NCBI GenBank assembly: GCA_024181965.1
Contig: BQXS01010965.1
Location: forward strand, 1-49,436
DNA from: Aduncisulcus paluster
Lineage: Eukaryota
Direction: 5' to 3'
Length of the DNA stretch: 49,436 nucleotides
Shown here piece by piece: positions 3,291-45,157 of this stretch; the stretch's first letter is position 1; every line of letters begins with the position of its first letter. Position numbers and translations under genes: made by a program. The notes beneath the pieces were generated by a model, which searched no databases, was not told the DNA's origin, and saw nothing but the letters and a program-made list of their open reading frames with translations.

Positions 3291-3552
3291 TAATCCAACT
3301 CTCCCCCAATTTCGTTGCACATAACATCTAGGCGTATTTTTATCAAAAATCTTTGTATTTTGGTGGAAGATTCAAGATGTGTGTGTAATCTGGATTAGAT
3401 ATATATATTTTAAAAAACTACTTTTGTTTCAAATTGTTGGCAGTATTTTTCATAATAATTATGCTCTTTTTCGTTATAATAAAAAATTGCTTCCTACTTT
3501 TTTCTTCAAACGGCTTTTTTTTTCGCATTACGACTTTCCTGCGGTAACCAGA

Positions 3553-6492: not shown

Positions 6493-6748
6493 AGTGTAGG
6501 ATTTGGATCAGATTACCGCATCTTCGTGGATTGTTTGTAATTTTTCAATTAACTTATCGATCCGCTCCTTCTAGGAGATACTGTGAGTATTTTGAAAGTA
6601 TGCAGGCTGTCTCTTTAGATTTTCAGGTCATTTTAAGGAACGAAATAAGATTATTTTATATTATAAATTTTAAATTATATCATAGATGATAATGAATATT
6701 CCCTTGAAGTAAAAAAAATAACAAATTCACTTTTTGTTCACATTTCGA

Positions 6749-21700: not shown

Positions 21701-22200
21701 CCCGTAAACTTCAGTCGTTACGTTCGAGAACTCAATCAATCCGTAATCAAGTTGGTAGATTTGGGAGAAAAGTCAGAGAGATGAGCGATGTGATTGGCGG
21801 AGATCCCATGTCAAGAAAAAGCTCAACGATAGAGAAACCATCAATTGCAAAACATGGGCGTTCTTCTTCTGCATTATCCACATCGTCTTCAGTGTCTGAA
21901 GCAAGCAAGAGGGCAAAAAGTAAGTTAGAACTCGGACCAAAAAAACAAATGGCTGCAATCGAAGATGGTATTCGAAAGAAACTCACACAGGATCCTTTGC
22001 AAGGGAGATATCAGTATTTATTGGATAACAAGGATCGAAGCTCCATTATTTTGGCTGGAAGTACACGTCAAGATGGTGTGCATAGTAGTTTGGCGACGTA
22101 TAAAAGAGAAAAAGCTCCCAGTATTGATGCTCTTGGAATGTCTAGGCGAACCAAGCCTAGCGGACCTCCTGGATTGTTGCTACGAAGTCCCGTGAAATAG
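6749..22200 (+). CDS. Giant hypothetical protein (~4,838 aa after collapsing two duplications); N-terminal beta-propeller-like region, then long Ser/acidic/coiled-coil tracts
   Basis: The ORFs 6734-12520, 12441-14009 and 13990-22200 join into one frame when 319 nt (gap plus duplicate) and 616 nt (tandem duplicate) are removed: 15452-935=14517 nt = 4839 codons. WD40-like LIFGLSNG, LLIGYSSG and VVIGHTNG motifs occur in the first ~500 aa. Confidence 0.75.
12178..12795. repeat. 299-bp direct duplication flanking 20-N gap (unmerged contig overlap)
   Basis: 12178-12476 is repeated at 12497-12795 around Ns at 12477-12496. Confidence 0.9.
13377..14608. repeat. 616-bp exact-looking tandem duplication causing a frameshift in the giant ORF
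   Basis: 13377-13992 is repeated at 13993-14608. The ORF track shows identical peptides offset by 616 nt. Confidence 0.9.
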
Positions 22201-22436
22201 AGATTCATTAATGGAAATTTTGATATTTTCTTAGAATAAAGTTGAATATATTGATTTTGGTTGTGATCTATGCCTTTATATTACCGCTATTATGAGATTA
22301 TTATTGATTTAAAAGATTAAATTTCCTTATTTGAGTCAATATACCGACGGGATTATGAAATTAGGTTTTGATTCCAATTAAAAACATATCACAGATTTTA
22401 TTACTCTTATATCCTTTCATATCGATAAATATTTTA

Positions 22437-23438
22437 ATGATACTCCATACTTTAAAAGATTTGACTCCCTTCCAATTCATTTCGGAAGCCAATGACCTTG
22501 TAGACATGATACCTTTTCGTTCTTCAACAACCAAATTTTCTTCCAAAGCAATTAAGGAGGAAGATGTAAAATCTATCTGTCAATTTATTGTAAATTGCCC
22601 TTTTCATGATATGTATGCTATTTTGCTTCGAACGAAAGGTGCTGATATATTTACTGACAAAAAGATTCAAAAAAGTGTGTGGATTAAGGATTCTGCTGAA
22701 ACAATTGTTATTCTTGTTGGTAAACGACATTCTCCCAATTTTATTGCTTCTTGTGGTCTTTTCGGTGAAATGTTATTTTTATACATAGCTAATTTGGGAT
22801 TATCGACGTGTTACACTATTAGTACGAAATTTGATCTTTTATCTGTTCAAAGAGCCCTATATATGTTTAATAGCGATGAAGATATCATTGTGACTTGCAT
22901 GCCTGTAGGATATTCAAGAGATACAGCAGCAGTTGGAAATTTGGATATTAGTTCCTCATCTGCCCCCATTACATTGCGTAGACCAAATCCTCTTGCAGGA
23001 CGGAGGGTACTTGACGATATGCTTCATCCTGATTCTGTTTCTCCCTCTAAATGGGGTTCTCATACAAAATTTCTCCTTATTTTAGCGCGAAAAGCTCCAT
23101 CATATAAGAATTTGCAACCATATTTTTTCAAGGTCTCTCATATGACAGTCCCTCTTTACTCAACAGCTTCTGCCAGGGAAACATATGGGGACGGAATGGA
23201 ACCAATCAGTATTATTGAACTCTATGTTAAATTAGAGCTTCACAAGACATTGGTTAAGAAATCTTCTAAACCTGTTGCAAAAGGATCCGTTCTTCCTGAT
23301 CCAAGACTTGATGCTGGAATTTGTGCAAGTCACATGTTGCTCGGAGCCTGTACATTCCCAGAAGGTGTTCTTAAAGAGATTGAAATGGGTGATGGAATCA
23401 TCGAACCTCTCCTTAGAATTGTTGTTCGCGAAAAATGA
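22437..23438 (+). CDS. Nitroreductase-family flavoprotein (two-domain, TM1586-like)
   Basis: N-terminal I..RSS..KF....I FMN-binding motif, G..GE...L....LGLSTC, then ARKAPS..N.QP..F and LDAGI...H in the second half. First ATG is at 22437. Confidence 0.75.
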   Translation: MILHTLKDLTPFQFISEANDLVDMIPFRSSTTKFSSKAIKEEDVKSICQFIVNCPFHDMYAILLRTKGADIFTDKKIQKSVWIKDSAETIVILVGKRHSPNFIASCGLFGEMLFLYIANLGLSTCYTISTKFDLLSVQRALYMFNSDEDIIVTCMPVGYSRDTAAVGNLDISSSSAPITLRRPNPLAGRRVLDDMLHPDSVSPSKWGSHTKFLLILARKAPSYKNLQPYFFKVSHMTVPLYSTASARETYGDGMEPISIIELYVKLELHKTLVKKSSKPVAKGSVLPDPRLDAGICASHMLLGACTFPEGVLKEIEMGDGIIEPLLRIVVREK

Positions 23439-25052: not shown

Positions 25053-25186
25053 ATATTTACCTTATTATTGGTAAATATCTGAGGATTGTTGGAATCATAC
25101 TCGAATTTATTTATGATCTTAATTCCCTGTTTTTTACTTTTTTGTTCGCGGGAATGGAGATTCAGAGGACTCGATTACAAATATTC

Positions 25187-25208
25187 ATATATATATATAT
25201 ATATATAT
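25187..25208. repeat. (AT)11 microsatellite
   Basis: atatatatatatatatatatat in intergenic DNA. Confidence 0.85.
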
Positions 25209-25413
25209 CCATACAGAATTCGGGAATTAAATGAAGGAATTTATTGTGGATTTACTGGAGGGTTTTTTACAGGAATTTATTCGGAATAAATATAATTTGT
25301 GTGATTTAAAACCATAATTCTCTTTGAAAAACGAATTTATCTGGAGATCAGACAAATATTCAATTTTTTTTCAAAATTTCGGTCGTTGCTCCAGTCTAAA
25401 AATTAAAGTGCAG

Positions 25414-25491
25414 AGAAATGGATCTCTCGAAAGAAGTATGTTAATTTTGAATTGTTTGGCCATGGATTTGGTTACGAATAATGGATGTAGC
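25414..25491 (+). repeat. Copy A of 78-nt dispersed repeat (kinase start exon + intron 5' end)
   Basis: Aligns ungapped to 33907-33984 with 8 mismatches. Confidence 0.85.
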
Positions 25492-27935
25492 ACTTTGCTA
25501 CCGATTATTTAATATCTAACAAATTATTTATAATAATATTATAATTTTTCAATTCAGATAGTAATAGAAACTCCTAGGTTCATTCATGAAGGAAAATTTT
25601 GTGCCATTCCCATTGCTAGGGATGACACCAGAATTTTTATCCCTAACTACAGCCATATCAAGTCTTGGGATGAAACAAAGGATGAAGATTCTGGATATGA
25701 TCAGAGTTTTAATGCCAAGAAGATATTGAGAGGAGATAGTCCATTAACATGTACATATTTATTCGTGCCATTTTCTAGACCTTCCTTCATGGAAGGAATT
25801 TATATCTCAATTTGCCAATTTGTAATTCAACTCATTCCTTCTTTTCTTATTGTTACTGTTAAAAATAATGTTGGAGAAGAAACCACCAAAAAATTTGTAT
25901 TTTCCAAGCTAGAGTTTGATTCAAATTGGTTTTTCCTTCCAATTAATCTTCCTGATATTATTTCTTGTGAACTTCGTGGGAGAGGAAGAGAAAATGATAA
26001 TTTTGAAATGGAATCTCTCGCGTTCCTTCGAAGAGAAACATCTGAAGAATATATTAGACGAAAAGCACTAGAATCTACTCAATCTCGAGCGTGGAGTGAT
26101 GCTGTATGTTATAAATCCTCTTTATTTGTTTTAATCTCTCCTTTTTTATTGTTTTTTTTTGGTCTTATATCTATCTTCAGAAAGTATATAATTCTATTTT
26201 CCTTGAGAGAGGTGGACGAACGACATGTCCAATATCCCGTGATGATCCATGTATTGTGCAACCTTCATTCTTGGAATTAAAAGGGAAAGATGTTGCCCAT
26301 AGTAAGGATTCTGAGAATTATGATCGTTCCTCTCGCATGCAATCTATGATGAAAGGTTACAGTAGTATTTCGCTCTCTCATATGCATATTCCATTCACAA
26401 AACCCAGTCAGCTTACTGGAGCATTTATCTCTGTCTATCGAAATGGTAGTCCTCCTTTCTTCCTTTTCTCTTTCACTCATTCAGATGGAAAGAAGACACA
26501 TAAAAAGTTTAAATATGTGAGACCCGCAAGGGATGAATGGCATTTCTTTCCTATTGATTTGGAAGAGGTTGTTTTGTGTGAAATTGAAGGGAAAGGAAGG
26601 TGGGATAATACGAATAGTCTCACATATTGGATCAATTCTCTCGTTTTCATCCAAGGTGGGCTTCCCAAGAATATTGTAATAAGAGATCCAAAATACAAAT
26701 CAATGACTCTAACTTCTCCTGCCAATGTTACCTCTCGATGCATTATCGGAAGAGGTGGATTTGGGGAGGTTCTTCTTGTTGATGTTGAAGGGATTCCTTT
26801 CCCTTGTATTCTTAAAAAGATGCTTGAAGTTGGGGAGAAAAAACTTATTAAAAAGTGTCGAAATGAATTCATAACTCAAGTCAAATTGTTTAACAATCCC
26901 AGATGTTTCAATCGCATTCCTCGGCCCATGTATATTCTTGATCTTCTTGATATTCATTATCGAGGAGTGTATGGATTTGTTATGGAATATTGTATTGGAG
27001 GAAGTGTAAGGACCTTTTCGAACTCATGGTGTGCTGATGGAAAGTATTGTGAAATTGAAGAAGATGAAGATGAAATTATTGAAGAAGATGACATTAATCC
27101 CATGACACTGAACCCCGTGAAAGTTGCTGCCCTGTGTGTTGGAATGATTGAATGTCTCGATGATGTATTCACGGCTAAACCAAGTCTTGTTCATCGAGAC
27201 ATCAAACCTGACAACTTCCTTGTTCGTGTTGATTCCAAGATTGGAGACTGTACGGTTGTTCTTGGAGATTTGGGCTTTGTTAAGATTAAGGATACGATAT
27301 CTTCTTCAATTTCTGAGAGTTTCTCATTTGCTACACCCAAATCTGGCATTCGAAAATCAAAAGGACATATTAATGGGACCCTCGTATATAATCCATTCGA
27401 ATCGCTGATGTATTCTGAACAAAGTCAAAAGAGTGATGCTTATTCCCTTGGATTGTCTATGTTTACTCTTTTTAATGGTTCAGATCCCTTTGTAAAGTCT
27501 CCTCCGCTGAGAGATATTCAAGATACTGTGGTTTATGTTGAAACTTTGATCAAACTTCTAGAAAGAAGGACTGTTGTGCCAATCATTTCTCGTCTTTCTC
27601 TATTCCGTTCCTTATTAACTATTGATGGTGGAAAGTATATACCTGTTTATTCATGTTTGAATGCGGTATTTGAAGATCTTACTCGTTTTGATGTTGACGA
27701 ACGAATAGATGTTCATGAAGCTCGAGAAAGGGTACAAGATATCAAACATTTCCTTCCAAAATTAGGAGAGGGTTGGGAATGTCCAAGTATTGAAAAGATA
27801 ATTGAATTTAACCTTGAGAAAAATGATGGAAATTGTGGGAGTATTGATGTATTGGATGCCGATAGATCAGGAGGTTATACACATTTTGCCTCTCAATCCG
27901 ATTCTCAATCTTCCTTTCAGTCGGAACGAGAGTGA
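25418..27935 (+). CDS. Ser/Thr protein kinase with two N-terminal lineage-specific repeat domains (3 exons, 772 aa)
   Basis: Exons are 25418-25435 (MDLSKE), 25558-26103 and 26181-27935. Introns 25436-25557 and 26104-26180 are GTATGT...CAG and phase 0. Kinase motifs: IGRGGFGEV, ILKK, HRDIKPDN, DLG, GTLVY, SDAYSLG. Repeat unit: PI.RDD....P......K..D...YD.S......G......PF......G..I....W.F.PI.L.....CE..G.G....SL.F. Confidence 0.85.
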
Positions 27936-28821
27936 ACATTTACAAAAATTTATTGAAATATTCTTCATAATTTATATTTATTTTATTCATATTTCCAATT
28001 CAAAAATGAACAAATTAACACCAACACAATCCCTGATCCAGTCATTTCTGTGGTCTTTCTGAAAGAGTAAACAACCATCTTGCAAATTGTCAACTTCACA
28101 AACACCCATTCACAACAGTTTATTGATCAGAGACCTGAAACCAACAATATGGGAAGGAGATGAAAATACATCATCCCATTCTCGTGCTCGGAAGGCTTCG
28201 AAGTGTGAATCCCTCTTTTGCTTCTCTTTCTCCAACTCTCGACGAATCTCAAGCTTCTGTTTTGTTTTCTTCCCTTATGATGGAAATCAAAGACAAAGAA
28301 CCAATAACACAAAGAAATGTCGAAGATAATAAGAATATTTCCAAAAACTTGATTATTTCGATTATTTTAGACAAAAATACAAAAATACAATCTATTTTTA
28401 GAAATTCTATTTTTAGAACACACAAATTGTAATAGTCTTAAAATCGAATATTATCCTATAATATCACCATAAAAATGTATTATTAGGAAGATATACGGTG
28501 AATGATAACTCAAGAAATGTCCAACAAAACCAAGGGAGATATGAGGAGATATTCTCACCATTCTAAAGCATATGATGCTGAATAATAACATTTTTCTCGA
28601 TTTAAAATATGTTTATATTCCCAAATAAACCCGCTTATTGAATGGATAAGCAGTGAATTTCGAGCTTGTTTTCATGCTTTATCCTCGACCAAAAGCACAG
28701 TGAAAAAGATGAATTAGGAATCATAAGGGAGTATTTATTGAAAATACGAATTGACACAATAAGAGATTAAGTAATAACACTGACACTATTCGTAGATCGT
28801 GGAAGAATATACAATAACTCA

Positions 28822-29441: not shown

Positions 29442-32400
29442 ATGAAGTATGTTATCTTCGCTCTAGTCAAAACTTGATTATCCAGGGTCCAGTTCAGGGG
29501 GTTCCCTTTATATTATGTTAGCACAATTTATATTTTACCAAATTTCCCCCCTATAATCCAAATTTACATTTCTTTTCATCCGTTCCATCAATATATTGAC
29601 AATTTGATCTAATCAATATTTCCAATGTCAGAATAGCATCGTCCAGTTCATCTAATCCACTCACTTTGCATGAACTTGAGCAATTAAAAGAAGATATCGA
29701 AGCAACATCTTCACAGGCTGCAGTGACGGCACTGTTTAAACAATCTTTTGATGGCATCAAAGCTATCTTCGACAATCATTCGCTGCCCGCACCAAAGTCA
29801 GCAATCATCTCGAACAAAGCACTTTTTTCTCAATGTTTTAAATGTTTATCCACATTTATTACCCATTCTTCCCCCAAAATTTCAACTCGTTCATCAACAA
29901 AAGAAAACGTGTTTGAAAATAATGATAAATTTGTTATCACCCTTCATAAATCCTCCACAAAGAAATTATTTAAATCTTTTATTAGTGAGATGCTCCGAAT
30001 TGAAACCATTCTCTCAGAGTACAAGGGAGAAAGGGAAGATGATAGTATCATTTCAACCACAATTTCGTTATTTAAAATGGTGGTTATATTTGTTAAAAAT
30101 TTTAAACAATTGAGACCCCCCTCATTTCATATGTCCATCTATCCTCAAGTTTTGTCTCCCCTTCTCTCGAGAATATTGTGTATTGGTGAATCCATTACCT
30201 TTGAAGATGAGTTCGTGAAGGATATTCTTGGAACATGCATTCCAATTGCATATACAACAAAAGACTCCACAAAAAATTCACTATTATTACTTATCCGCCC
30301 TCATATCTCTCCATGGATGAAGAAATACCCCGCCAAGAAGTGTTTTACACATTGGATTACCATCTTGAAGTATTTAACTCTTGATAAAGATAATATCCAT
30401 CCCCATAAAGATCGTTCCTCACAACTATGGTTTATTTTTCATCCTATCTTGGATATTGTTAAGGATATTTCTTTCAAAGATTATCATTTCGATGACTCTG
30501 CTATTTTTCGATTTTTGTCCCTTTTTACTCATCTTTGGTGTGTCCCCACTCATATTCTTGACGTGTATGAAAATATCAAAGCGAGACTTGCCGAATGGTT
30601 CGAGTTGATTATAGAACAGTCCAATTTAAAGGAGAAGAAAGAGGGAATTAAATCCTGGTCCAAACTTATTTCAACACTGTCTTCTTCTCCATCCCTTTCA
30701 TCTTATTTGTCTCCAAAATATGATTCTACTATGGAGTGGTGCAGTCAAAATGGAGGGTTATCTGAAGATTATGATAGATTTCTGAGTAATTCTCATCCTT
30801 ATCCAAAGAAATGGATAAAGTTAATCAGATCCATCAAGATATGCCAAGATTATTCATCACTACTAGAAATGTACCACGAATTAAAAGATGAAATGCTTCA
30901 AGTTTTCATCTCATCCCTTTTGAATCAAAAGGTACAAGAAAATAAGATTGAGATTCGTCTGTGTTGCCAATGTCTCAGATGGTTTGTTAATGGATTTTAC
31001 CGCACATCGTGTTATAATACTGATATAAAAGATCTCATAGAATCTTTTATTTATCATCTATCAGAAATGAACAAAATATTAGAGGGATCTCTCGATGAGG
31101 AATATTGCGTGATATGCTCAGATTATTCTGCTAAATCTTTACAAATCAAAACAGATTTGGATTCTTTTTTCCCCAATATTGCCCCAACTTTTCGAAATAT
31201 TCTTGAGAGAGGGATAAGAATGGACTTGGCTGATTCCATTTCGATTCACCTTTTATTTACTCTCAAGGTTATTTCAGAATTATCTTCATCTTCAACTCAA
31301 TATTCTATTTTTATACTTATTCAGCCCTATATCATTGAATGGATGCGATCATACGTAAAACCAACATTTTATGGAGACTGGATGGNNNNNNNNNNNNNNN
31401 NNNNNAATATTAGAGGGATCTCTCGATGAGGAATATTGCGTGATATGCTCAGATTATTCTGCTAAATCTTTACAAATCAAAACAGATTTGGATTCTTTTT
31501 TCCCCAATATTGCCCCAACTTTTCGAAATATTCTTGAGAGAGGGATAAGAATGGACTTGGCTGATTCCATTTCGATTCACCTTTTATTTACTCTCAAGGT
31601 TATTTCAGAATTATCTTCATCTTCAACTCAATATTCTATTTTTATACTTATTCAGCCCTATATCATTGAATGGATGCGATCATACGTAAAACCAACATTT
31701 TATGGAGACTGGATGGTTATTCTTGCAAGAATTACGGGTTCACTCTTTGACCCTGACATCAAGAAAACAGAATGTTGTGAAATATGGCCAATTTTCAATT
31801 ATGTGATCGAAATTGTCAAGAAAAGATTTGTTGGAGATGAAATGGTTTCATATAATAATTATTATGTCTTGAGATTCTTCTCAAATTTGTGTTGTGATCC
31901 GCTCAATATTCTTTCAATATTTGATAATGTTCAAGGTTTATTGAATGGTTGGTTCAAAGTGTTCAAGCGAAGAAAATATGGAACCGGATTAAAATTCTGG
32001 TCCGAACTAATTTACATGTTCTCCACCGTTCCAAAATTAATTCCTCATTTATCACCTAAATTTGATATCAACATGGAATATATTGCTGAAAATAATCCTT
32101 TGATAAGTGATTATTTTTCAAAATATATCTCAAACATATTTGTATTTTTATCCTCTTCTTATTTTTCTGTCCTTACTCATTCCATTCCAATCATATCAAT
32201 TATTCCTTCTTTTGAAATATATAGACTACCTGACTCAACTGATCTTCTTACTACCCATGTTTGTTCTGGAGTAGAGTTGAAACAAATTTTGAAGGATGAA
32301 ACTCCGAAAATTTCTTATTATTGTGCCATTTTGGGAATAGAAATGAAGTGTAAATGTATTTTTCATGGGAAATTTTGTAAAATAGATATTAAAGAACTTG

Positions 32401-32618
32401 ATCCCGAGATTTCTCCGTCTTCCCTTCCAATTTCCCACTCTTCTGTTATCCAATACACTCCTCCTCAACATTTACTTGTAACAATGCAATTTTCTGAAGA
32501 AAGATCCTTTCGACAATATATGTATAATTTCATTGAACGGACGGGAGCAGGTGTTGAAGTGTTATTCGATGAAGAAATTCTTTCATATGAATGGTATAAT
32601 CAGGACGAACAGGAATAA
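29442..32618 (+). CDS. Hypothetical alpha-helical (ARM/HEAT-like) protein with a ~300-aa internal duplication (~886 aa)
   Basis: Micro-exon ATGAA at 29442-29446. Intron 29447-29631 is GTATGT...CTAAT...CAG, and its phase 2 matches. Exon 2 starts at 29632. Removing 331 nt of gap plus duplicate gives 2661 nt. Internal repeat: LIRPHI..WM..Y.....W..IL..LT...LSPKYD vs LIQPYI..WM..Y.....W..IL..IT...LSPKFD. Confidence 0.7.
31075..31716. repeat. 311-bp direct duplication flanking 20-N gap (assembly overlap)
   Basis: 31075-31385 is repeated at 31406-31716. Confidence 0.9.
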
Positions 32619-32681
32619 TAAAAAAAGATGAATGAAGTAGATTCTAACTCTACAAATCAATAAATATTTCACCTCGAACCT

Positions 32682-33518
32682 TTAGTGACATGCCCATACC
32701 ATTTGAACACAATCTCCATGCTCAGGACAGACCACAATTTGACAGGCGCCGAGATCACCGAACATATAGTCGAGACAATCATTGCTCTCCATATGATAGA
32801 CCAATTCGGAAGCAGCACCACAAACAGGGCATTCTCGAAAATCAACTCCTTGTATCCAATCAGCATATCCACAAATGCCATCACCAACATACTCAAATTT
32901 GGCCTCAAGACCTTCGAAGAGGTAGTCACTCCATTCATCTATCACATCATCAGAGGTAGTCTCAAAAAATTCAGTACTATTTGGATAACAGATACAAGGT
33001 GACCACTCAATGACTTTTCTGCACCTTATGCTTTCTACAGTGGTAGGATAAACGGATATAGCAGTTTCGGCTGGGGGAGTCACAAGACGACAAACATACT
33101 CTGGATCATCAGCCCCACCTTCACGTAATGATCCACGGCACTCATCTTCCAAGGAACATTTAAACAATTGAATAAGTGAGCCCGCAGAAAGGGAGGCAGG
33201 CCTGATATCTTCAGGAATATCACTAACACTTAGTTGAAAAAAGAAACAAAGGGGAATATTATCATGTGGACATACTGGATATGGGTGTTGTTCACTGATA
33301 TATGGCCTTTTACCACCATATTTAGAGCAGAGATGATCCGTGTCTTCTTCATCAGGGATATCTGGAGAAATCATTGCAGAATATTTGATTTTTTCAAATG
33401 GTTTTATGGCTTGGAATATTGATTGAAGTTCAGAGTCAGTAGGAGCTTCCTCACCTAAAATCTCTTCTAAGATGGGAAGAGTCAATCCATCAGGAAATTC
33501 AGGAACAATAGTTGGCAT
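32682..33518 (-). CDS. DUF1963 (YwqG-like) domain protein, bacterial type
   Basis: SKYGG.P......P.CP....L.FFFQL....IP...G.LIQLF.C, then G..DWIQG....CPVCG....LV...ES.D.L.YMFGD.G...I..CPEH......WAC, matching bacterial DUF1963 proteins as recalled. Confidence 0.75.
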   Translation of the reverse strand: MPTIVPEFPDGLTLPILEEILGEEAPTDSELQSIFQAIKPFEKIKYSAMISPDIPDEEDTDHLCSKYGGKRPYISEQHPYPVCPHDNIPLCFFFQLSVSDIPEDIRPASLSAGSLIQLFKCSLEDECRGSLREGGADDPEYVCRLVTPPAETAISVYPTTVESIRCRKVIEWSPCICYPNSTEFFETTSDDVIDEWSDYLFEGLEAKFEYVGDGICGYADWIQGVDFRECPVCGAASELVYHMESNDCLDYMFGDLGACQIVVCPEHGDCVQMVWACH

Positions 33519-33906
33519 ATATTGTAATAATTAATATTTTGAATGCAATGATAAAGAAGGTGGCTGCAAAAATGAACCATTAGAGCGAAATTGATTGTTG
33601 TTGACTTTTGCTGATTCATTCTGCATTTAAAATTAAGTTTCAATACATTTTCAAATGAAATATTTCATTTTTAATCCGATCTTACATTAAAATAGAACAT
33701 ATATGTGGCAAAGCTCCTAATTGCAAACAAAAGGCGATTTCCGTTCAATATGGGACTTAATCTACTCACTATGAGAGACATTTTAATTCATTGTTACTAC
33801 TAGGGTTTTCATGGATAATTTTTGTGTTGATATATGCACTGCTTCATTTCACAGCCAGAAATTCTGTCATTGCTCCACTTTATAAAGTTTTAAAATTTTT
33901 GCACAA

Positions 33907-33984
33907 AGAAATGGATCTTTCAAAGAAAGTATGTTAATTTTTAATTGTTTGGCCATGAATTTGGTTTAGAATAATGGATGTAGC
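33907..33984 (+). repeat. Copy B of 78-nt dispersed repeat: orphan ATG micro-exon (MDLSKK) + GTATGT donor upstream of viperin
   Basis: About 90% identical to 25414-25491. ATG at 33911, donor at 33929. Confidence 0.85.
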
Positions 33985-34188
33985 CAAATATTTCTACTTC
34001 ACCTTTCTTGCAAATAATTAACTATATTGTCCGGAAAATTTTTTCTTTTTTTATCAATTTGCCTATCTAGACTTTCTAATTCTTATTATATTAAGGTACG
34101 AGGATTAAGGTCCTCACTTAGCTGTGCCCCAAATTTCCAGGATAGATTTTTTTTTCTTCTCGTATTTTTTGCAACCCCCACTATTATT

Positions 34189-35289
34189 ATGTCAAAAATA
34201 AGTATAAATCCAACTTTGATTCCCATTCCCACCCAATTCCCTTCTTCCCAACCATCTCGAGACCTGCCTCTTGATATTTCTGATATTGAAGACTCAGTAA
34301 GTTCCATTATTGAGGAAGAATTGTATAAACTTCCTTGTCCCGCCATAAATTATCATGTGTGTCGAGTTTGTAATTACCGATGCAAGTTTTGTTTCCATCG
34401 GGCAGCCAAAAAGATCAGAGACTCCAAGTCAAGCTCATTGTATCCTCTCTCTGACAGTGAGATTTATCGCGGATTAGAGATCCTCAAAGCTGCCTCTGGA
34501 GAAAAATTAAATATTGCTGGAGGAGAACCCTCTCTTTGGAGTATTGAGAAGTTGGTCTTTGTCATTTCATCGGCTAAGAAGATTGGATTTAAATGCGTTA
34601 GCATTATCTCCAATGTATATAGCTTTAAAAAAGAAGATCTGCCAGTTCTTAAGGATGCAGGACTGGACATTCTTGGTATCTCTCTCCATTCAAGTTCTGA
34701 TGCCGGATGTGAGGAAATTGGGTATTATCATGCTAAATACGCAAGATCCCCAGTTGGAACTCGCGCCAGTGGAACTATCTCCCATATAAAAGAGATTTGT
34801 GCTGCTGCACATGAATGTGGTCTTCATTTGAAGATAAACACAACTCTCTGTGTTCCCAATGCTAAAACATTTAAATCTTTAGCTGAATTTGTGGTTAAGG
34901 ACCTTCAGCCATGTCGCTGGAAGATTTTCCAGGCCATTCCCCTTGGATCCAACGAGGAAGAAGGTGTCGAGAAGGCATTCGTCGATGAAGAGGAGAAGAT
35001 CTTATTCCTTACTGAGAAAGAATACAACAAGGCCGTGGATCCTGTTGTCGCTAAATACCCTGAATCTAAATTTGGCATCAAAATTATCAAAGAATCCTCA
35101 AAAATTATGAGGAATTCTTATGTTGTTCTTGATGAACTTATGAGACCGATTGATAGCTCTACAGGAGCAAAAATGCCCCAGCAATCCATTTTAGACGAAG
35201 GAGGCATTGAAAAAGCAATGAGAAAAGTTGTTTTCGATGGTGAGTCTTTTAAGGAAAGGAGTGGGAATTATTTCCAGGATTTGAAATAA
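34189..35289 (+). CDS. RSAD2: Viperin (RSAD2-like) radical SAM antiviral ddhNTP synthase homologue
   Basis: INYHVCRVCNYRCKFCFH (CxxxCxxC), KLNIAGGEP, VSIISN, LDILGIS, LKINT, RWKIFQ, ES...MRNSY.VLDE.MR, SILD.G and FD...F..R.G.Y, all collinear with vertebrate viperin motifs. First ATG is at 34189. Confidence 0.92.
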   Translation: MSKISINPTLIPIPTQFPSSQPSRDLPLDISDIEDSVSSIIEEELYKLPCPAINYHVCRVCNYRCKFCFHRAAKKIRDSKSSSLYPLSDSEIYRGLEILKAASGEKLNIAGGEPSLWSIEKLVFVISSAKKIGFKCVSIISNVYSFKKEDLPVLKDAGLDILGISLHSSSDAGCEEIGYYHAKYARSPVGTRASGTISHIKEICAAAHECGLHLKINTTLCVPNAKTFKSLAEFVVKDLQPCRWKIFQAIPLGSNEEEGVEKAFVDEEEKILFLTEKEYNKAVDPVVAKYPESKFGIKIIKESSKIMRNSYVVLDELMRPIDSSTGAKMPQQSILDEGGIEKAMRKVVFDGESFKERSGNYFQDLK

Positions 35290-35627
35290 TTCATAAGAAA
35301 TGAAACCTCTATTTCCTTCTATTATCATAATAGTATTATGATACGGATCAATTTAAAATACTATTTTATTAGATTATGTTCATTCTCTTGTTCATCTATA
35401 AAGATTCAGTTTGTCTAAAATTCAGACTTTTGATGGTATTCGCAATTCTTTTCTATCCTTTTGTTATTATGTTATGTCTTCTAATTTGAATATGTTTTGT
35501 CATGTTTTCTTCATCTTTCTAATAATGAACCTTAAGTTCAACAATAAACATCTCTTTCAAAAAGATCTGATCATCAGATAATAGTATAATATAGTATAGA
35601 AAAGCATATATCTACTCTTGGGCAAGG

Positions 35628-38066
35628 TCACCGAACACACTGTGGAACACCAGACCAATGGAGTTTTTTATCATCTTCCTGATTTGGAATATGTGTATCT
35701 TCCTCATCTTTCTCAGTAGTATCTATTTTTGGACAAAAATATCGGTGTCCTCCGAGACCATTTTTTCGAGGAATATGAATGATTGTCATTTTCCCCAGAT
35801 CAATATCATACGGAACTCTAACCTCAAAATGGGTATCTAAATCTGGCAATTCTATACGTTTTGCATCAAAATGTCCTCCTTTAGACGTTATTTCCTTCAC
35901 AGACATCACAGAATCGTTAGAAACAATATTTTTAACTTGAGATATTTTGGATTTTTCAACTAATTCCATTTCATCCTCTTCTTCATCCTTTGTAGAATCA
36001 ATATGAATGATCCGAGTATCTATTCCTTCATTCTTCATGGTACTTTTCGAAACAGGATAATCCCCAGAGAATTGTGAGACAGACTTAGGAGTCTTTTTCA
36101 CAGGATATGTATCAGATGGAACATCACCAAATCTTCGTTTCCCATAATCCCCCTGAAGAGATGTGGGGAGAGATGTTTGGTCATTTAAGTCAGGAGAGAT
36201 GTCATCGGAAATATCAACAATCTCAATCTGAGAGGATCCATCAGAGTCAGATGCAAGCGAAGAGATCGAATTCGAATGAATTGGGTGCTTTCTTTTGCCA
36301 TGGAGTGGATCTGTTATTCTTTCGATCTCTGAAGACATCTCCATTCCATCTCTGATATCCTTTTTAAGGTGTCTTCTTTTCATACAATGTGAAATAATTT
36401 CCTGATCAATCAATTCAGAAACACAAGAATGAAATGAAGGTGATATTTGAGCCGCATCTGGCTTTGAAAACGCATCTAGAATATTACCACGAGGAATTAT
36501 AGGTTTTGATGTAACTGTTGATGGAAGTTTCTGACTCAAAATATCGTGAACATCAACCCATTCAACTCCATCCATATGTGGTTCACTTTCATTCTGTGTA
36601 ATGTCTCTATCACAATCTTTCTCAATATCTATTTTGGGAATACTATATTTAGAGGGAGTATCTCCTTTCCTCTCCTCCTCATCTTCAATATCGATGATAA
36701 TAGCACTATCACAAGAAACATGTTCTGTTATTTTAGCTTTTGCTGTATAAAATTCAAGAAGAGATTGCTGAATTTTGGGATCAAACTCAGGGTTTCGTGA
36801 CAGTTCTGGTTCAAATTTAGACTCAGAATTTGAACAAGATATTCCAATTTCAGATTTCTTTTTCTTTTCATCTAACATTGACTTATTCTTCTTTGCTTCT
36901 TTATCGGCGAGTTTTTTGCGCCTTTGAGATTCTTTCCTCTTATTTTTTTGAACTATTTTCATAAGTTTCACGCTTTCTTCTTTGGACTCTATTGTTGTTC
37001 CCTTTTCTTTCAATCCTTCAGTAAATTCAGGCCCATCTATTTTTACCCAAATATTTTTGCATGTCCAGCAAGGATCAGGCCAATTATTTTTAGCTCTTTT
37101 TAGTATCTTTCCGCATCCTTTGCATCTCCATCTATGAACCCTATAATAATCTACTTCACCATGAAAATTATGATATACTGTTATTGTTGATCCTGTTAAT
37201 CTATTAATTTGATGCATTCTTGCCTGAAATAAAGATCCATGTGGATCTTCTTCTCGAATACCCAAAACAAAAAAATCAGCGTGAATCTACATTCAATATC
37301 ATAAGAATACAAAAGATATATTAAATAAATAAGAAATAACGGAATAAAGGATGGAGAAAACCCATAGATGAAAAAAATGAAAAATTCAAATGNNNNNNNN
37401 NNNNNNNNNNNNCCAGCAAGGATCAGGCCAATTATTTTTAGCTCTTTTTAGTATCTTTCCGCATCCTTTGCATCTCCATCTATGAACCCTATAATAATCT
37501 ACTTCACCATTAAAATTATGATATACTGTTATTGTTGATCCTGTTAATCTATTAATTTGATGCATTCTTGCCTGAAATAAAGATCCATGTGGATCTTCTT
37601 CTCGAATACCCAAAACAAAAAAATCAGCGTGAATCTACATTCAATATCATAAGAATACAAAAGATATATTAAATAAATAAGAAATAACGGAATAAAGGAT
37701 GGAGAAAACCCATAGATGAAAAAAATGAAAAATTCAAATGAAACATACCATTTCATGGAGTAAAGTATTAACTAAATCACTAAATGGTCTATATTTTAAT
37801 AATGGTTCAGATAACCTTATCTTAACTTCATAAGAAGTGAGAGATCCTCGATATTGACATATTCCAGCACATAAAGTCATTTTAGGTGACCAATCTACAG
37901 TAACAGCACCCAATCTAGATCCAAATAAGGCCTTTTGAAAATAAGAAAACATGCTATGAATGGATTGTCCTTGAAAAGAAGTCAGCGGGGGAAAATAAGA
38001 AGTTCCAGAGGATATATCCCTTCCAAAAGGCATTTTGTTATATTTAATGTTTATATTACGGATCAT
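35628..38066 (-). CDS. SPRTN: SprT-family DNA-dependent metalloprotease, Spartan/SPRTN-like (2 exons, ~650 aa)
   Basis: Exon 1 runs from 38066 (or 38033) to 37749, with WSPKMTLCAGIC, IRLSEPLLKYRP and TLLHEM. The intron 37748-37635 is GTATGT...TAG. Exon 2 begins IHADFFV...DPHG..F...M..IN..TG..ITVYHNF..EVD.YR.H.WRC. HEXXH is split by the intron. The exon 2 start is duplicated across the gap (intact copy 37286-35628). Confidence 0.9.
37065..37740. repeat. 328-bp direct duplication flanking 20-N gap, one SNP between copies
   Basis: 37065-37392 vs 37413-37740; G37163 vs T37511. Confidence 0.9.
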
Positions 38067-38310
38067 TGTTGGTATATCATCTTCAAAAAGTAGTATAGAG
38101 GATTATCAAATTCTATTCGAGCAACTATAAACTTGATCAGGGAAAATACATTGAAAATATATCAAACTCATATTGTATATTTATTTATCATCGATCAATA
38201 TACAATTTTTCTTCCTGATTACAGCCTGTCACCGAGTCACTCGTTTTCACGGTGAAAATAATCAATTTATTGATCGTAATTATCCAGCAAAAAACCTTCC
38301 TATTTCTGTA

Positions 38311-39870
38311 TTACGTGTATAGTTTTGCCAATCCGTTACTACATCCCGCAATAAACCAAGGTTGAATTGGGTGCCAACAGATATCTCTAACACTCGATGT
38401 AGCGCAAGATATCCGTTTAATTGGAATGATAAGGGGAGAACGTTCCATAGATTCGAATATCTTCCCATGGAACACATGCACACACCCGTCATCACCACCA
38501 GATATGAATAACGGATATCTTGAGTGGAAAGCAACATTCCTCACTCCTTCTGACGACTTCCCATCCTCAGATGTGTGAGGTTCCATGGTTTTATAAGGAG
38601 TATTCCCAAGTTCCATATCCATCCAGACACACTTTCCATCCAGACCTGACACAAGAATATGCTCACCGCTCATGTGGATATCCATGCCACTGCTCCACTT
38701 CACACCAGTGAGTAAATGAGCAATAATAGCCTGTTTTTCGAGATGGTACATCCGAACTCCAGTCTTAGTGCACACAAATATAACAGGCTTGTAAGGATGG
38801 AAAGCAGCACTGACAACGCTTCCTTTGTATGATTTGAATGGATAAAGAGAACGTTTGTTTGATATACGATGAACAGTAATGGCTGATGCAACTCCAGTTG
38901 GTGAAACTGTGAGACAATAGTCACCTCGACAATGCCATTTGACAAACGAGAGAGGTTTGGCATGCTTAACACGAATCATAATACCAACGGGATATTGCCG
39001 AGTACTGAGCTTTAATTTGCTTGAAGGAATAAATTCCCAACTCATTCCCTTTGGACAGTCGAATTCAAGCCCAGACAGAAGCTCGGTGGTATTCTTTTGG
39101 ATGGACACACAACCAAGACCAGGATGATACAAACAAAGCTCTTTTCCACAAGTCAAGGCAAGAACACACACATCACGACGTGGGGAAAAAGCAATGCAGG
39201 TAATGGCGGAGGACAAAACATGTTTTCTGATGCATCTTCCTGTACGAGTCTCCCATATTCTTACAATACCTTGCCTGGCAACTTTTACATGATCAACCTT
39301 ATCTCCACTTTCCTCTTCATCAACATAATCTTCAATAACACCTTCCAATTCCTTGTCTTCTTCAGGCATCTCATCTTCATCAATTGGGAGATCACGTTCT
39401 TTTCCATTTTCTTCAATCACATATTTACGAGAAATTTTACGAACATTTTTAGCAGTAGCCACCCACTGACCACATGGAGATATCCCTACGCACTCAATAG
39501 CAACACTTTTCTCTCTATCCTCTTCATCGGGAGCTTTGAATATAACAGCAACCCGACTTGGAAATGGTTTGAGTTCTTGAGTGGATGGTAATTGTGGGAG
39601 GAGATCTTCTGGATTAATTCGAGCTTTTCGCAATATTCTCTGACGAGGGGCCATATAAAGATCAATACAACGTAAAAAACGATCTCTCATAAAATTTTTA
39701 TAGCTTGGAATATGTCTGAGACAGTCTATTTGTTTCGGCATGAAGTCAATCGCCCTATCGAGAGGATCTGTTCTAAGCCATTCTTCTTGTTCTTTTTCAT
39801 CAAATAAATACTCCTTTGGGGGCCTATAACTCTCTTCATTACCTGGTAATGCCTCTGGGGGTGCCTCCAT
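38311..39870 (-). CDS. BOP1: Ribosome biogenesis protein BOP1/ERB1 (WD40), short N-terminus
   Basis: LPGNEESYRPPKEYL, LRHIPSY...DRF.RC.DLYMAPR, LLPQLP...ELKPFP, WH.RGDY, FH..YPLF.SG.DDG, P.IIP.K and WHP.QPW are BOP1 signatures. ATG at 39870 (alternative upstream ATG at 39969). Confidence 0.92.
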   Translation of the reverse strand: MEAPPEALPGNEESYRPPKEYLFDEKEQEEWLRTDPLDRAIDFMPKQIDCLRHIPSYKNFMRDRFLRCIDLYMAPRQRILRKARINPEDLLPQLPSTQELKPFPSRVAVIFKAPDEEDREKSVAIECVGISPCGQWVATAKNVRKISRKYVIEENGKERDLPIDEDEMPEEDKELEGVIEDYVDEEESGDKVDHVKVARQGIVRIWETRTGRCIRKHVLSSAITCIAFSPRRDVCVLALTCGKELCLYHPGLGCVSIQKNTTELLSGLEFDCPKGMSWEFIPSSKLKLSTRQYPVGIMIRVKHAKPLSFVKWHCRGDYCLTVSPTGVASAITVHRISNKRSLYPFKSYKGSVVSAAFHPYKPVIFVCTKTGVRMYHLEKQAIIAHLLTGVKWSSGMDIHMSGEHILVSGLDGKCVWMDMELGNTPYKTMEPHTSEDGKSSEGVRNVAFHSRYPLFISGGDDGCVHVFHGKIFESMERSPLIIPIKRISCATSSVRDICWHPIQPWFIAGCSNGLAKLYT

Positions 39871-40075
39871 ATTCGATAGGACAATCCAAAGTTGATTGAA
39901 AAAACGTTTATTCCTAACTGGCCTTCTGAAGCACTTGGTCTCCCAATTTATGGCATGACAATAATACATTCAATGAAACATATTATATTCATGCCAATGT
40001 TTCCCCTCTATTTATTCCAATTAAGCTATTCATGTTCGTGATTGGAAATTAGTTGTTTTGTGAGCAGATTACTCA

Positions 40076-42358
40076 ATGTCAAATCTTCCAATTCTTTCTT
40101 GGGGTTTAAACAATCCTGTTCCCATGTCTGTTTTGGCCATGATGAAAGCTTCTTCTTTTTCATGTCGCCAAGAGCCCACCCAAGCTCTTCCTGAGCCAAT
40201 TCTATTGACTTTCCCAGATATTTCAACAAAAATAGCCACCGAAATGGGTGTATTATTTTATATGGCCCTTAAAACAAAGAAGTTTTTGCCTTCTCAACCA
40301 TTGTCAGAAACTATGGACCAATGGACATATTTTGTTCAAAAAAACCTTATCCCCCATTCATACCTTGCTTCTCGTCCCACTCCAGCTCCAATGTTAGAGA
40401 GTGTTATTGCTGTTTTGGCCCGTATCCTTGACTCCTCCCCATTCTTGACCACTCCCACTCCCTCCATCATTGATTATTTTGTTTTTGGAGTCTGTACCGA
40501 AGTTCCCATGCTTCCTGAATTGTTAGAGAAACCCGAATTAAAGTCTTTTGCCAGTTGGTATTCAATGATGGACCAATCTCCTTCATTCAAGGCTGCTGTT
40601 GGTGTTTCCAAGGCTGCTGTTGCCTTAGCCAAGAAGAGACAAGCAGCAGAGAGCAAGATGAAGGCCCAAGCTGCTCGTGTCAAGAAAGAAGGTCGTGCCG
40701 CCAAGACTGGTCATAGCGGTGAGGGTCCTGTTCTTCCTCATGCCATTGAAGGTAAAGTCTGCACTCGTTTCCCCCCTGAACCTTCAGGATATCTTCATAT
40801 TGGTCATGTCAAAGCTGCTATGCTTAATCATTACTGTGCTCGTAAATACAAGGGACGTCTTCACTTCCGTTTCGATGATACTAACCCTGTCAAGGAGAAT
40901 ATCGAGTTTGTTGCCAACATTAAAAGAGATCTGAAGACCTTGGGCGTTGATTATGACACCACATCCTACACTTCTGACCACTTTGACGACTTTTTGGAGA
41001 GAGCTGAGTTTCTCATCAAGGAAGGAAAAGCCTTTGTTGATGACACTGATCGTGACACAATGCGTCAGGAGCGTATGGAATGCATTGATTCCAAGAATAG
41101 GACAAACTCTGTTGAGAAGAACTTTAAGATGTGGGAAGAGATGAAGAAAGGTTCAGAGTATGGTCAGACCTGTGTCCTCCGAGCCAAGAGTGGAATGGAT
41201 AATCCCAATGGATCGATGAGAGATTTCGCCATCTATCGTGTCTGTTTGATCCCTCACCATCGGACTGGTAGCAAATACAAAGTCTACCCCTGTTATGACT
41301 TCTCTTGCCCCATCATTGATAGCAAGGAGGGCATTACACACGCCATGAGGACCTCAGAGTTCCAAGATAGGGATGAACAGTATGCCTGGGTGTGTAAACA
41401 ACTGGGAATCCGTTGTCCCATGGTTCTTAGTTTTAGTCGTATGAATTTGGAGTACACTGTTATGTCTAAGAGATTACTGCAACAATTCGTTGATGCTGGT
41501 GCCGTTGATGGATGGACTGATCCTCGTTTCCCCACTGTCCAGGGAATCAGACGTCGTGGAATGACGACCGAAGCCCTTCGTAAATTTGTTGTTCTTGCTG
41601 GATTCAGTAAGAGTAAGAATTGCCAGTCTTGGGATAAACTATGGTCCCTGAACACTGCTTTCATTGATCCCAAATCTCCTCGTTTCATGGCCGTTGAAGA
41701 CCCTTCAGACAAATCGGCCGATGCCGAGTCCCCTGCACTTGTTAAGGTCTGGAAATCATTCTCCGATTCAATTCCCTGGTCTGGCCCAGAGTCCAAGGCT
41801 GTCCTCCTTCACAAGAAGGTTCCTACCCTCGGAACTCGTAAGTGTTTCTACGATCATCATCTCTTCGTCGCCCATGCTGATGCTCTTCTATTTAAAGAAG
41901 GTGAGAAACTCACTCTCAAGAACTGGGGTAATGTTGTTGTAAAGAAGATTGACAAGAGTTCCGATGGCTCCATTGTTATTGATGTTGAGGACATGCCCTC
42001 TGACACCAACTTTAGAGACACTCTGAAGTACACCTGGCTTGCTGCTGGTGATAGTGCTGGAAAGTATGCTTATGTCCATGGTGTTCTTCGCTATTTCTCT
42101 CCCCTTGTCTCCAAGAGAGAGCTCAAGCCTGAGGATATGGAAGAGATTGACAAGTACATCAACACTGACACATGCACAGAGAAACACGTGATCATCTCCC
42201 CTGAGGCCGCCACTTGTGAAGAGGGATCCACATTGCAGCTCGAGAGGACAGGATTCTTCTATGTCGATAAGAAGACAATCAATGAAGAAGGTGAGATTGA
42301 ACTCATTCTTCATCACATACCTGAAGGAAAGAAGAAGGAACAGGCTCTCGGAAGATAA
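40076..42358 (+). CDS. GUS1: Cytosolic glutamyl-tRNA synthetase (eukaryotic type, N-terminal GST-like domain)
   Basis: TRFPPEPSGYLHIGH (HIGH), RFDDTNP, YPCYDFSCPIID, THAMRT.EF.DR, VMSKR, WTDPRFPTVQG and QLER.GFF. C-ending codon bias suggests high expression. Confidence 0.95.
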   Translation: MSNLPILSWGLNNPVPMSVLAMMKASSFSCRQEPTQALPEPILLTFPDISTKIATEMGVLFYMALKTKKFLPSQPLSETMDQWTYFVQKNLIPHSYLASRPTPAPMLESVIAVLARILDSSPFLTTPTPSIIDYFVFGVCTEVPMLPELLEKPELKSFASWYSMMDQSPSFKAAVGVSKAAVALAKKRQAAESKMKAQAARVKKEGRAAKTGHSGEGPVLPHAIEGKVCTRFPPEPSGYLHIGHVKAAMLNHYCARKYKGRLHFRFDDTNPVKENIEFVANIKRDLKTLGVDYDTTSYTSDHFDDFLERAEFLIKEGKAFVDDTDRDTMRQERMECIDSKNRTNSVEKNFKMWEEMKKGSEYGQTCVLRAKSGMDNPNGSMRDFAIYRVCLIPHHRTGSKYKVYPCYDFSCPIIDSKEGITHAMRTSEFQDRDEQYAWVCKQLGIRCPMVLSFSRMNLEYTVMSKRLLQQFVDAGAVDGWTDPRFPTVQGIRRRGMTTEALRKFVVLAGFSKSKNCQSWDKLWSLNTAFIDPKSPRFMAVEDPSDKSADAESPALVKVWKSFSDSIPWSGPESKAVLLHKKVPTLGTRKCFYDHHLFVAHADALLFKEGEKLTLKNWGNVVVKKIDKSSDGSIVIDVEDMPSDTNFRDTLKYTWLAAGDSAGKYAYVHGVLRYFSPLVSKRELKPEDMEEIDKYINTDTCTEKHVIISPEAATCEEGSTLQLERTGFFYVDKKTINEEGEIELILHHIPEGKKKEQALGR

Positions 42359-42597: not shown

Positions 42598-45157
42598 ATG
42601 GATAGTATAGTTATTCGAAAGAATTGTGAATCAAGAACTCTTGTCGCCCTGGATAAGTTGAATGTCCACGACACTGTACACGTTGGAAAAGCACAACTTA
42701 TTAGAATTAGTCGAGAAATACAAGGATTGAGACAACAACTTATAAAGTTTTTTGTATGTGAAGCTATTATTTCAAATCACAAATTTTTTGTTTTTTTTTT
42801 ATCTTCAAAATTCCCTTACTTGATATTATTTACACCAAAATTTAGAGATTATTATGTGCATTTACGAAGATAAAGCTTCCATCAGGACNNNNNNNNNNNN
42901 NNNNNNNNCGCCCTGGATAAGTTGAATGTCCACGACACTGTACACGTTGGAAAAGCACAACTTATTAGAATTAGTCGAGAAATACAAGGATTGAGACAAC
43001 AACTTATAAAGTTTTTTGTATGTGAAGCTATTATTTCAAATCACAAATTTTTTGTTTTTTTTTATCTTCAAAATTCCCTTACTTGATATTATTTACACCA
43101 AAATTTAGAGATTATTATGTGCATTTACGAAGATAAAGCTTCCATCAGGACAAGTAGCTCTGCTTCAAGTGATATCTGATGCCTGTGTCTTTCATGCCGA
43201 TAAAATGTGGGCGTCTGTACCTCATATCGCCACTCAAATTGCATATGCTGCAGCTCAAAAGAGGGACATGGTCGTAAAACAGGCTCAACATACATTCAAA
43301 CATTTGGCTTCCGATGTTCTTGCACACGCTGAAAAAGTTCCAGGGCTTTCAGCATCTTTAAAACCAATTATTTCAACTCCTTTAAAATATTTAACAACTG
43401 CTGTGCCAGAAAAACAACAAGCAGGAGCCTTATTGCTTGCAGCTGCATTTTCTGGTGCATCTTTAGCTTCTCAGAAGACAGTATTTTCGTCAATTATTCC
43501 AAAATTAACAAGTTCATATTCATATGTTGCTCCTCCATCACAAGCTTCAATTATGCAAGCACTTGGAACCATTTTACAAGATACCAAACAAGCTGGGTTT
43601 ATTGCAATATACGCTCATGATATTTTCCAACTCTGTACAAGTGGAGTCTTGAATACACAATGGAGTGTTCGAGCAGCCACAATTAAAGTACTTGAAGTCC
43701 TCTATGTTAGTCAATATCTGAGTCCTGATGAAAATCAGAATCTTGTACGAATTGTCAAGTCAGAGCTTCATGATCCACATTCATCTGTTCGCCTTGCAGC
43801 AAAGGAGGCCATTTCAACATGCTCAGGGGTAGATATGTCGAGAGCTGTTAATGCATTTGGCACTGAAGATGATGATGATTCAGATACACTTGAAGGGGAA
43901 GATGATGGGATGTTAATTCTTGGATCTGGAAAATCTAAATATGTATCTTCGAAAAAATCTTCTCACAAATATTCTTCAAAACTCAAACAAAAGAGACCCC
44001 AAAGTGCACCGTTTCGCTCATATCAATCTTCCATTCACTCTTTCGATCGTTTAGATCCTGATGAAGTTCTTGATAGAGATTCCACAGAAAAACAACTTCC
44101 CCTTGCATTTTCTGAACAGCAAGAAGCCAAAATCCATAGTGAGCGACTCTCTCGATTAGTATCAAACACTGAGAAACTTCGAGATCAAATTCATGGAACT
44201 GGCTCTGCTTCACGTCACACCAATGCAACTTTTCCCACAACAGATACATCTGAGCAATATTTCCAATCATCAAATCCCGCCCAAAAAAAGATGAAAAAAG
44301 TTCGAATTGTATCATCCTCACAAGAATTACCATCTTCAATGTTAACTGGAAGTCAAGATATTGGATCTTTGATCTCTTCATCCCAAAAATGGGAATCCGA
44401 TTTAAGATCTCAAGAACAGGCATTATTGCAACTCGATAAAACAAAGAGCCAAAAAGATAGGGCGATTTCTTCTTCTTTGAGAAGGATGGAAGACTCTCTG
44501 GCCAAGATGGAAAAAAGGTTTACTGAACGAATTGATGAAGTTGAGCGTCTATTTATTCAAAAAGTTGATACAATTGGTGCACGTGTCGAAGCCATTGAAA
44601 AACGGTTGTATACTGAAGTCACCATGAAACAGGCTTTCCCTGGTCTCCCTCTTCAACAAAGTTTTCAACCCATAGAAACATTTCAGCAAAAACTTCCACC
44701 ACCTCAGCTCTCAACACCTCAATACAGTAGCTATGAACAATCCAACTCAACTATTGTCCCAACTCATTCACATCCTCTGCCTATGCAATATGATCGAAGA
44801 GATGAACAAGATACTCCAGGCGTTGTTCAGGCAACAATTCTTTCAGCATTATCACAGAAAGCAGATGGTGCATTTCTCCCTGTTTTGAGGGTTATATCAG
44901 GGAAACGTGTTTTACATCTTCTTGACACGGCCGTGGCTGAACGATTATTACTATATGTTGCAGGTCACTTATCAAAAGGAGAGTTTGTGGATTCTTTTGT
45001 ACCTTTATTGGGTGAAGTAAGTATCGTCAAGCCTCACCTGGGTTCTTATGCAATCCAAACTCTAAAAGATTCGATAAAAGTTGCCATGAGTATATATCGT
45101 GATAACACGGGACTTCAACAGGCCCAAATTGATATCAATAATGCTTATCCATTGTAG
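42598..45157 (+). CDS. SPIRAL2/TORTIFOLIA1-like HEAT-repeat microtubule-associated protein (2 exons, 734 aa)
   Basis: Exon 1 is 42598-42753. The phase-0 intron is GTATGT...TTTAG (42754-42845). Exon 2 resumes at 43109 in the post-gap copy (RLLCAFTK...). N-terminus R.LVALDKL..HDT......L resembles TOR1/SPR2, followed by HEAT repeats (Q.GALLL, W.VR.A...L), a coiled coil and a helical C-terminal domain. Confidence 0.65.
42645..43151. repeat. ~244-bp direct duplication flanking 20-N gap (T10 vs T9 difference)
   Basis: 42645-42888 vs 42909-43151. Confidence 0.9.

Follow-up and report, generated by a model that had tools for sequence, protein, structure and literature searches.

How does the first exon of a kinase gene come to stand, with its splice donor, in front of a gene for a viperin-like enzyme, and what might it do there? 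The question is raised by a 49,436-nt stretch of the genome of the free-living fornicate Aduncisulcus paluster (contig BQXS01010965.1; "the window" below means this whole stretch), in which a preliminary description, made from the letters alone, had noticed the repeated exon and had proposed that viperin may have borrowed it, possibly gaining a membrane anchor. The reading that we prefer, at a probability of about 0.6, is that the copied exon serves as a leader of the viperin-like gene and carries a tiny upstream reading frame, and that it is not a membrane anchor.

The window is a compact, intron-poor eukaryotic stretch of 39% G+C, with housekeeping genes for a Rad51-like protein, a SNARE, an SNF2 helicase, an amino-acid transporter, BOP1 and a Glu/Gln-tRNA synthetase. 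An alternative genetic code is ruled out: ORFs end at TAA, TAG and TGA alike, as under the standard code. The A. paluster genome measures 29.4 Mb, with 39.1% G+C and 11,743 introns; it was assembled with MaSuRCA from Illumina reads, and its Braker2 gene models were guided by stranded RNA-seq (PMC9933649). Among the intron counts tabulated for the lineage are 8 in Giardia and 124,912 in Kipferlia (PMC9933649, Table 1).

Sequence data on the locus come from two runs of the same sample, X1 and X2, which are therefore not independent and which were used as assembled contigs only; such contigs drop rare isoforms and give no transcript starts, ends or strand. X1 behaves as DNA: its contigs have near-uniform depth (1127-1324 in five of six, 2303 in the other) and run unbroken over 32452-40000. 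The X2 contigs, by contrast, vary in depth from 8.6 to 834 between neighbouring genes, against 1127-2303 in X1, and for this reason X2 is read as RNA; the type "RNA?" of the run itself is a guess. X2 has a hole at 33635-33804, between the viperin-like gene and a divergent DUF1963 gene.

A 5' block shared by two unrelated genes

The features on which the argument turns are collected in Table 1. In a BLASTN search within the window, the core of the repeat (33904-33984 against 25411-25491) is 90.2% identical over 82 columns (E 1.8e-25), or 72 of 81 bases when gaps are left aside; the 78-nt match to the kinase 5' end that first drew attention to the locus is thus present where it had been placed. 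A gapped local alignment stretches the match to 33856-33984 against 25372-25491, with nine gap columns, and the two 100-nt stretches that precede the core are more alike than chance allows (z 4.3; none of 2000 shuffles reaches the score). At its other end, the homology stops sharply at 33984/25491: in shuffle tests, neither the 3' parts of the two introns nor the sequences after the two acceptors show similarity beyond chance (z 0.3, -0.47 and -0.93). The pair is the only diverged repeat that self-BLAST finds in the window; the other matches are four exact duplications on either side of N20 gaps, a tandem copy of 617 nt, also exact, and two inverted matches of 31-32 nt.

Table 1. Positions of the shared block, of the two genes that carry it and of related features in the window
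Feature	Position	Strand	Basis or remark
Copy A, 5' end of the kinase gene	25372-25491	+	BLASTN, local alignment
Kinase exon 1, MDLSKE, real start	25418-25435	+	Splice model, equal to public 772-aa protein P0009
Kinase intron 1, 122 nt, GTATGTTA...ttcag	25436-25557	+	Splice model
Kinase exons 2 and 3	25558-26103 and 26181-27935	+	Intron 2 at 26104-26180
Predicted leader before the mini-exon ATG, part of the presumed cover of the 124 letters	33805-33910	+	Depth arithmetic; further ATGs at 33811 and 33834
Copy B, upstream of the viperin-like gene: leader, ATG and five codons, GTATGT donor, first 56 nt of intron	33856-33984	+	Alignment, BLASTN, shuffle test
Mini-exon, coding part, ATG GAT CTT TCA AAG AAA (MDLSKK)	33911-33928	+	Start of the putative 8-codon upstream reading frame
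Putative leader intron, 142 nt, donor GTATGTTA, acceptor ...ctatctag	33929-34070	+	Acceptor from the left end of X2 record 12; donor predicted
ACT TTC TAA, end of the upstream frame after the predicted splice	34071-34079	+	Translation of the spliced frame
T-run, T9 in the window, T11 in contigs	34147-34155	+	TT inserted behind 34146 in one contig each of X1 and X2
Viperin-like radical SAM gene, 366 aa and stop	34189-35289	+	Pfam, NCBIfam, PDB, protein database
Intron of the SprT-like gene, 114 nt, GTATGT...TAG, splitting the HExxH zinc motif (HEM/IHA)	37635-37748	-	An X2 piece ends at its acceptor

Of the nine differing positions within the core, the leader has one, the 18-nt exon four and the 56 intron bases another four. 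Copy B retains its ATG (33911) and its GTATGT donor (33929), the latter intact as had been described. The earlier count of three synonymous differences among the four in the exon is also correct: those at 33919, 33922 and 33925 fall on third positions, and only 33926 changes the peptide (K in one copy, E in the other). Judged by a count of possible changes, this bias is weak evidence (p about 0.03-0.11); it could hint, faintly, that the peptide might matter in both copies.

In the kinase gene, the role of the exon is clear. The mini-exon is the true start and is joined in frame to exon 2, because exon 2 offers no other usable ATG; the splice model, with its stop codon at 27933-27935, gives a product of 772 aa that starts MDLSKEIVIETPRF and is identical to P0009. 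Is this start typical of the kinase family? A protein search returned the kinase's own public 772-aa A. paluster protein and 108 paralogues from the same species. A regular expression finds a MSSSTDAVIQTVEPEF-type start in 22 of the 108 paralogue models, the remainder being partial or having other N-termini, and none of the 108 begins with MDLS; going by these models, and for this last reason, the MDLSKE mini-exon is not a start exon of the family. An ancestral, decayed ATG at the edge of exon 2 was considered and dropped: tblastn there aligns either STDAVIQT to SIQIVIET or YSIAIQM to YNFSIQI, and these alignments conflict, are short (about 50% protein identity) and are too weak to polarise the copying.

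Several observations concern the kinase gene and its surroundings. Its stretches 25558-26103 and 26181-26600 encode two tandem N-terminal modules of about 170 aa (..CPIPRDxP..YDQSxxAQxMMKG..IPF..) with no Pfam match; the module is common to the paralogues and is fused to a nitroreductase domain in P0109, and a nitroreductase-like gene lies at 22365-23438, 2 kb upstream of the kinase. Summed contig depth in X1 over 26207-27408 and 28010-28610 reaches about 135,000, against about 1,270 in the single-copy flanks, and joints and loose ends are numerous there. Very many other loci share, at 85% or more, both the kinase domain and a region downstream of the gene at 28.0-28.6 kb, in which no ORF has a Pfam match. 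A (TA)n microsatellite at 25174-25219 separates the kinase gene from that of the amino-acid transporter, and contigs break there.

The gene behind copy B encodes a radical SAM protein (PF04055, E 4.6e-17) with a CxxxCxxC cluster motif (C-NYR-C-KF-C, within NYHVCRVCNYRCKFCF). Its best two NCBIfam families are both viperin models, each scoring under the cut-off (NF038283, 154.1 against 180; TIGR04278, 129.6 against 450), and the nine PDB matches, every one a chain of viperin, of a viperin-like protein or of a radical SAM core, have E values from 7.4e-29 to 2.9e-22 and span query residues from about 45 to 362, which takes in the C-terminal extension (NSY..LDE.MR). Viperins convert NTPs into ddh-nucleotides and act against viruses. 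Like the viperin/RSAD2 family, therefore, the protein has the cluster motif and near full-length similarity to solved viperins, C-terminal segment included; unlike that family, it stays under both NCBIfam cut-offs and has two insertions relative to its homologues. About 50 residues at its N-terminus are acidic and rich in Pro and Ser. The only 100%-identical protein in a large database is the 366-aa form starting at 34189, and no extended form is found there. The nearest named relative comes from Dysnectes, another fornicate. The presence of the gene is unsurprising, because PMC10732462 reports viperin-like proteins from 158 eukaryotic species in all major supergroups. A search of the literature on viperin in Metamonada found no work on the present locus, its lone match being judged irrelevant from its listing. 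A second protein, P0002 (364 aa, from an 8.7-kb contig), shares 53% identity with the viperin-like enzyme, differs from it in the N-terminal 130 aa or so, and is probably its orthologue from a relative whose G+C is higher; the C-terminus of P0002 looks mis-modelled.

Probable splicing upstream of the viperin-like gene

If the exon is copied with its donor, is the donor used? The evidence comes from one X2 contig, record 12 (3641 letters, depth 178.6), of which letters 125-3342 lie on 34071-37286, with 124 further letters upstream of 34071 and 299 beyond 37286. The left end, 34071, comes directly after a TAG at 34068-34070. The right end, 37286, is equivalent to 37634 across a 348-nt assembly duplication and is the exon edge of the intron in the SprT-like gene. 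Because record 12 stops at this predicted acceptor where X1's DNA contig runs on, X2 appears to hold spliced RNA. The record also crosses a 338-nt spacer into the SprT-like gene, which is convergent with the viperin-like gene; this needs either overlapping 3' ends or some DNA in X2.

Where do the 124 upstream letters belong? The X2 depth in the bin 33419-34019 is 99.8, and the sum 175.3 x 216/601 + 178.6 x 124/601 gives 99.85; contiguous placement of the letters predicts 84.7 in this bin and 178.6 in the next, where 168.4 is observed. By these depths, the 124 letters lie in the bin of the copied exon and are not contiguous with 34071. The bin holds a single GTATGT donor, the one at 33929. The best fit is that the 124 letters are 33805-33928 and that 33928 is spliced to 34071, the donor being given by depth arithmetic and consensus and the acceptor by the contig end. 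The predicted intron looks ordinary for this DNA: its donor 8-mer GTATGTTA is that of kinase introns 1 and 2 and fits the local consensus GTATGTT, and, as in all three reference introns, the final 45 nt contain no AG besides that of the acceptor and the stretch at -30 to -4 is rich in pyrimidine (81%).

The main rival to a leader exon is an inert relic: copy B would remain from a local duplication and do nothing, viperin would have its own promoter shortly before 34189, and record 12 would owe its left end to an assembly break or a chimera. The joint 33928^34071 is deduced from a contig end and from depth, and is absent among the joints listed (15 of 30; 2612 further pieces lie beyond the listing), so the record could be suspected on that score; but AG boundaries mark both of its ends (one is an acceptor predicted independently), and the 124 letters explain the bin depth to the decimal. 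Recombination debris is plausible next to a kinase family this large (108 paralogue models; depth about 135,000 against about 1,270), yet neither blastn nor tblastx finds a kinase remnant downstream of copy B, and shuffle tests agree, which also leaves without support the earlier suggestion that the block is what remains of a deleted kinase paralogue. A T-run 33-42 nt upstream of the viperin ATG resembles those before other starts, as would suit a promoter there; the donor of copy B, however, has stayed intact, and more of the core is preserved (72/81) than of the leader before it. On balance, an inert relic seems unlikely, though it is the strongest of the competing explanations.

Putative upstream reading frame, proposed membrane anchor and origin of the block

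What would the copied exon contribute to the viperin-like gene as a leader? With the splice 33928^34071, translation from the mini-exon ATG reads MDLSKKTF*, a frame of eight codons whether the T-run downstream has nine or eleven bases; unspliced RNA would read MDLSKKVC*. From the stop of the upstream frame to the viperin ATG at 34189 there are 109 nt (111 nt with T11). The mini-exon ATG stands in good context (AAAGAAATGG). For the frame to be part of the mRNA, the transcript has to include 33911; if the leader starts near 33805, the transcript would hold two extra upstream ATGs as well (33811 and 33834).

For leaders with upstream reading frames and 5' UTR introns, yeast GCN4 and mammalian ATF4 are the textbook cases. 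The spliced viperin leader would resemble them in that its ATG stands in good context and begins a frame of very few codons, which stops about 110 nt short of the main ATG. It would differ in that the kinase, an unrelated gene, shares both leader and peptide and has its real start at the same ATG, and the regulatory role of the viperin leader is putative.

Vertebrate viperin carries an N-terminal amphipathic helix that anchors it to the ER and to lipid droplets. An analogous segment had been proposed for the present gene, by way of an in-frame splice from the mini-exon (33928^34141 or ^34096) that would give MDLSKK followed by the membrane anchor FFFLLVFF, if only in a minor isoform. With the T9 of the window, both acceptors are indeed in frame, the frame being open from 34018, and to that extent the in-frame CAG acceptor seen at 34140 is real; with the T11 of both contigs, it and the acceptor before 34096 run into a stop, and the frame would be kept only from a TAG site followed by A, with its exon beginning at 34146. 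Moreover, the X2 contig enters the gene at 34071 and at neither 34096 nor 34141, so that neither proposed junction is borne out, and the 34071 acceptor joins no hydrophobic segment to the start codon. The two acceptors lie behind one or three skipped AGs, unlike those of the three reference introns. The "hydrophobic segment" itself is a translated T-run of uncertain length; several other genes of the window have similar T-runs 35-75 nt before their start codons. Some distant homologues (P0004-P0006) do have short hydrophobic N-termini, and minor isoforms can escape contigs; with MDLSKKTF* as the product of the 34071 splice, T11 breaking the longer frame and a 366-aa protein as the sole one on record, the extension is nevertheless very improbable. 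The difference between T9 and T11 is the only one between the X1 contig and the window over 32452-40000.

It is hardly credible, finally, that the block is a dispersed multi-copy element present at many genes, be it a spliced-leader RNA gene, an introner-like element or a transposon end: a short exon, a GT donor, a conserved 5' intron part of about 56 nt and a sharp end of homology (33984/25491) recall a spliced-leader RNA gene, and the kinase copy has AAUUUUGA, which we take to resemble an Sm site, but the window holds two copies only in its 49 kb, X1 depth over 33419-34019 is exactly that of a single contig (1270.6), the X1 excess at the kinase copy amounts to about 40 nt of single-copy depth, X2 shows no excess over the exon such as a leader joined to many mRNAs would produce, the conserved intron part has no Rfam match at threshold (best E 0.77, far under the gathering score) and folds no better than shuffles (z 0.09, -1.13, 0.35, -1.68), an exact scan of JGI metagenome contigs with a 24-base core pattern gave 0 matches, and the kinase is cis-spliced in its public model.

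The locus would then be explained as follows. A block of about 125 nt, which runs from a promoter-proximal leader through an ATG and the five codons after it to a GTATGT donor and the opening 56 nt of its intron, would have been duplicated between two unrelated genes that lie 8.5 kb apart on the same strand. In the kinase, translation starts in the mini-exon, which is joined to exon 2 without a shift of frame, as the public protein bears out. On the viperin side, the transcript would contain the same exon, with a splice from 33928 to the position after the first AG behind the T-rich tract (34070/34071); here, it would be a non-coding leader, and its ATG would open only the frame MDLSKKTF*, which ends before the viperin ATG at 34189. 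The upstream frame, or frames, would likely damp or condition viperin translation, and some 5' regulatory sequence may be common to the viperin-like gene and the kinase.

The idea of a borrowed first exon survives in part: the copied exon and donor are apparently used, as the X2 acceptor and the depth bin indicate, but the exon does not come from the kinase family's stock of starts (MDLS in 0 of 108 models), and the lender may have been either gene. The arrangement resembles exon shuffling, or 5' exon capture, in that a first exon with its donor and upstream sequence stands at two unrelated genes before apparently different second exons. It departs from the usual case in the small size of the piece, which is coding in the kinase and non-coding at viperin and for which either gene may have been the donor.

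A bolder version, tentative and in our view rather doubtful, is that the leader, the ATG mini-exon and the donor form a portable "start cassette" that was recently grafted onto an unrelated neighbour, a new intron being made from what had been upstream sequence. One candidate for such an event is the kinase, which would have exchanged the family-typical MSSST... start for MDLSKE; the other candidate is viperin, which would have acquired a leader intron with an upstream reading frame. If true, the locus would catch in the act both the gain of an intron and the turnover of a start codon through micro-duplication.

Why does the leader-exon reading matter? If it holds, one short sequence is a protein start in one gene and, in its neighbour, a non-coding leader with an upstream reading frame: a clean, small example of how an intron-poor protist can gain first exons and introns through micro-duplication. 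Translational control of the viperin-like gene, in a fornicate that is free-living, would then also be a possibility. No new kind of viperin emerges, and the locus is, in itself, an ordinary small 5' exon duplication.

Assembly duplications and neighbouring genes

Four N20 runs interrupt the window (12178-12795, 31075-31716, 37065-37740 and 42645-43151, flanks included), each flanked by exact or near-exact direct duplications of 299-328 nt. Contigs of both runs skip 31075-31405, and the X1 contig skips 37164-37511; the duplications are scaffolding artefacts. They falsely lengthen or split the models of the gene at 29600-32618, the SprT-like gene, a giant ORF and the gene at 43109. Annotators of this region should note that both the length of a homopolymer (T9 or T11) and the four N-gap duplications alter reading frames here.

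Two giant ORFs, 6722-12520 (1932 aa) and 13966-22200 (2744 aa), have no Pfam match at E 0.001. The BOP1-like ORF belongs to a divergent pair with the Glu/Gln-tRNA synthetase gene (38311-39969 on the minus strand and 40064-42358 on the plus strand) and starts about 100 nt from it; it matches only positions 156-259 of the BOP1 N-terminal domain profile, and either is short at its N-terminus or has unrecognised upstream exons. The exact tandem copy of 617 nt lies at 13376-14608.
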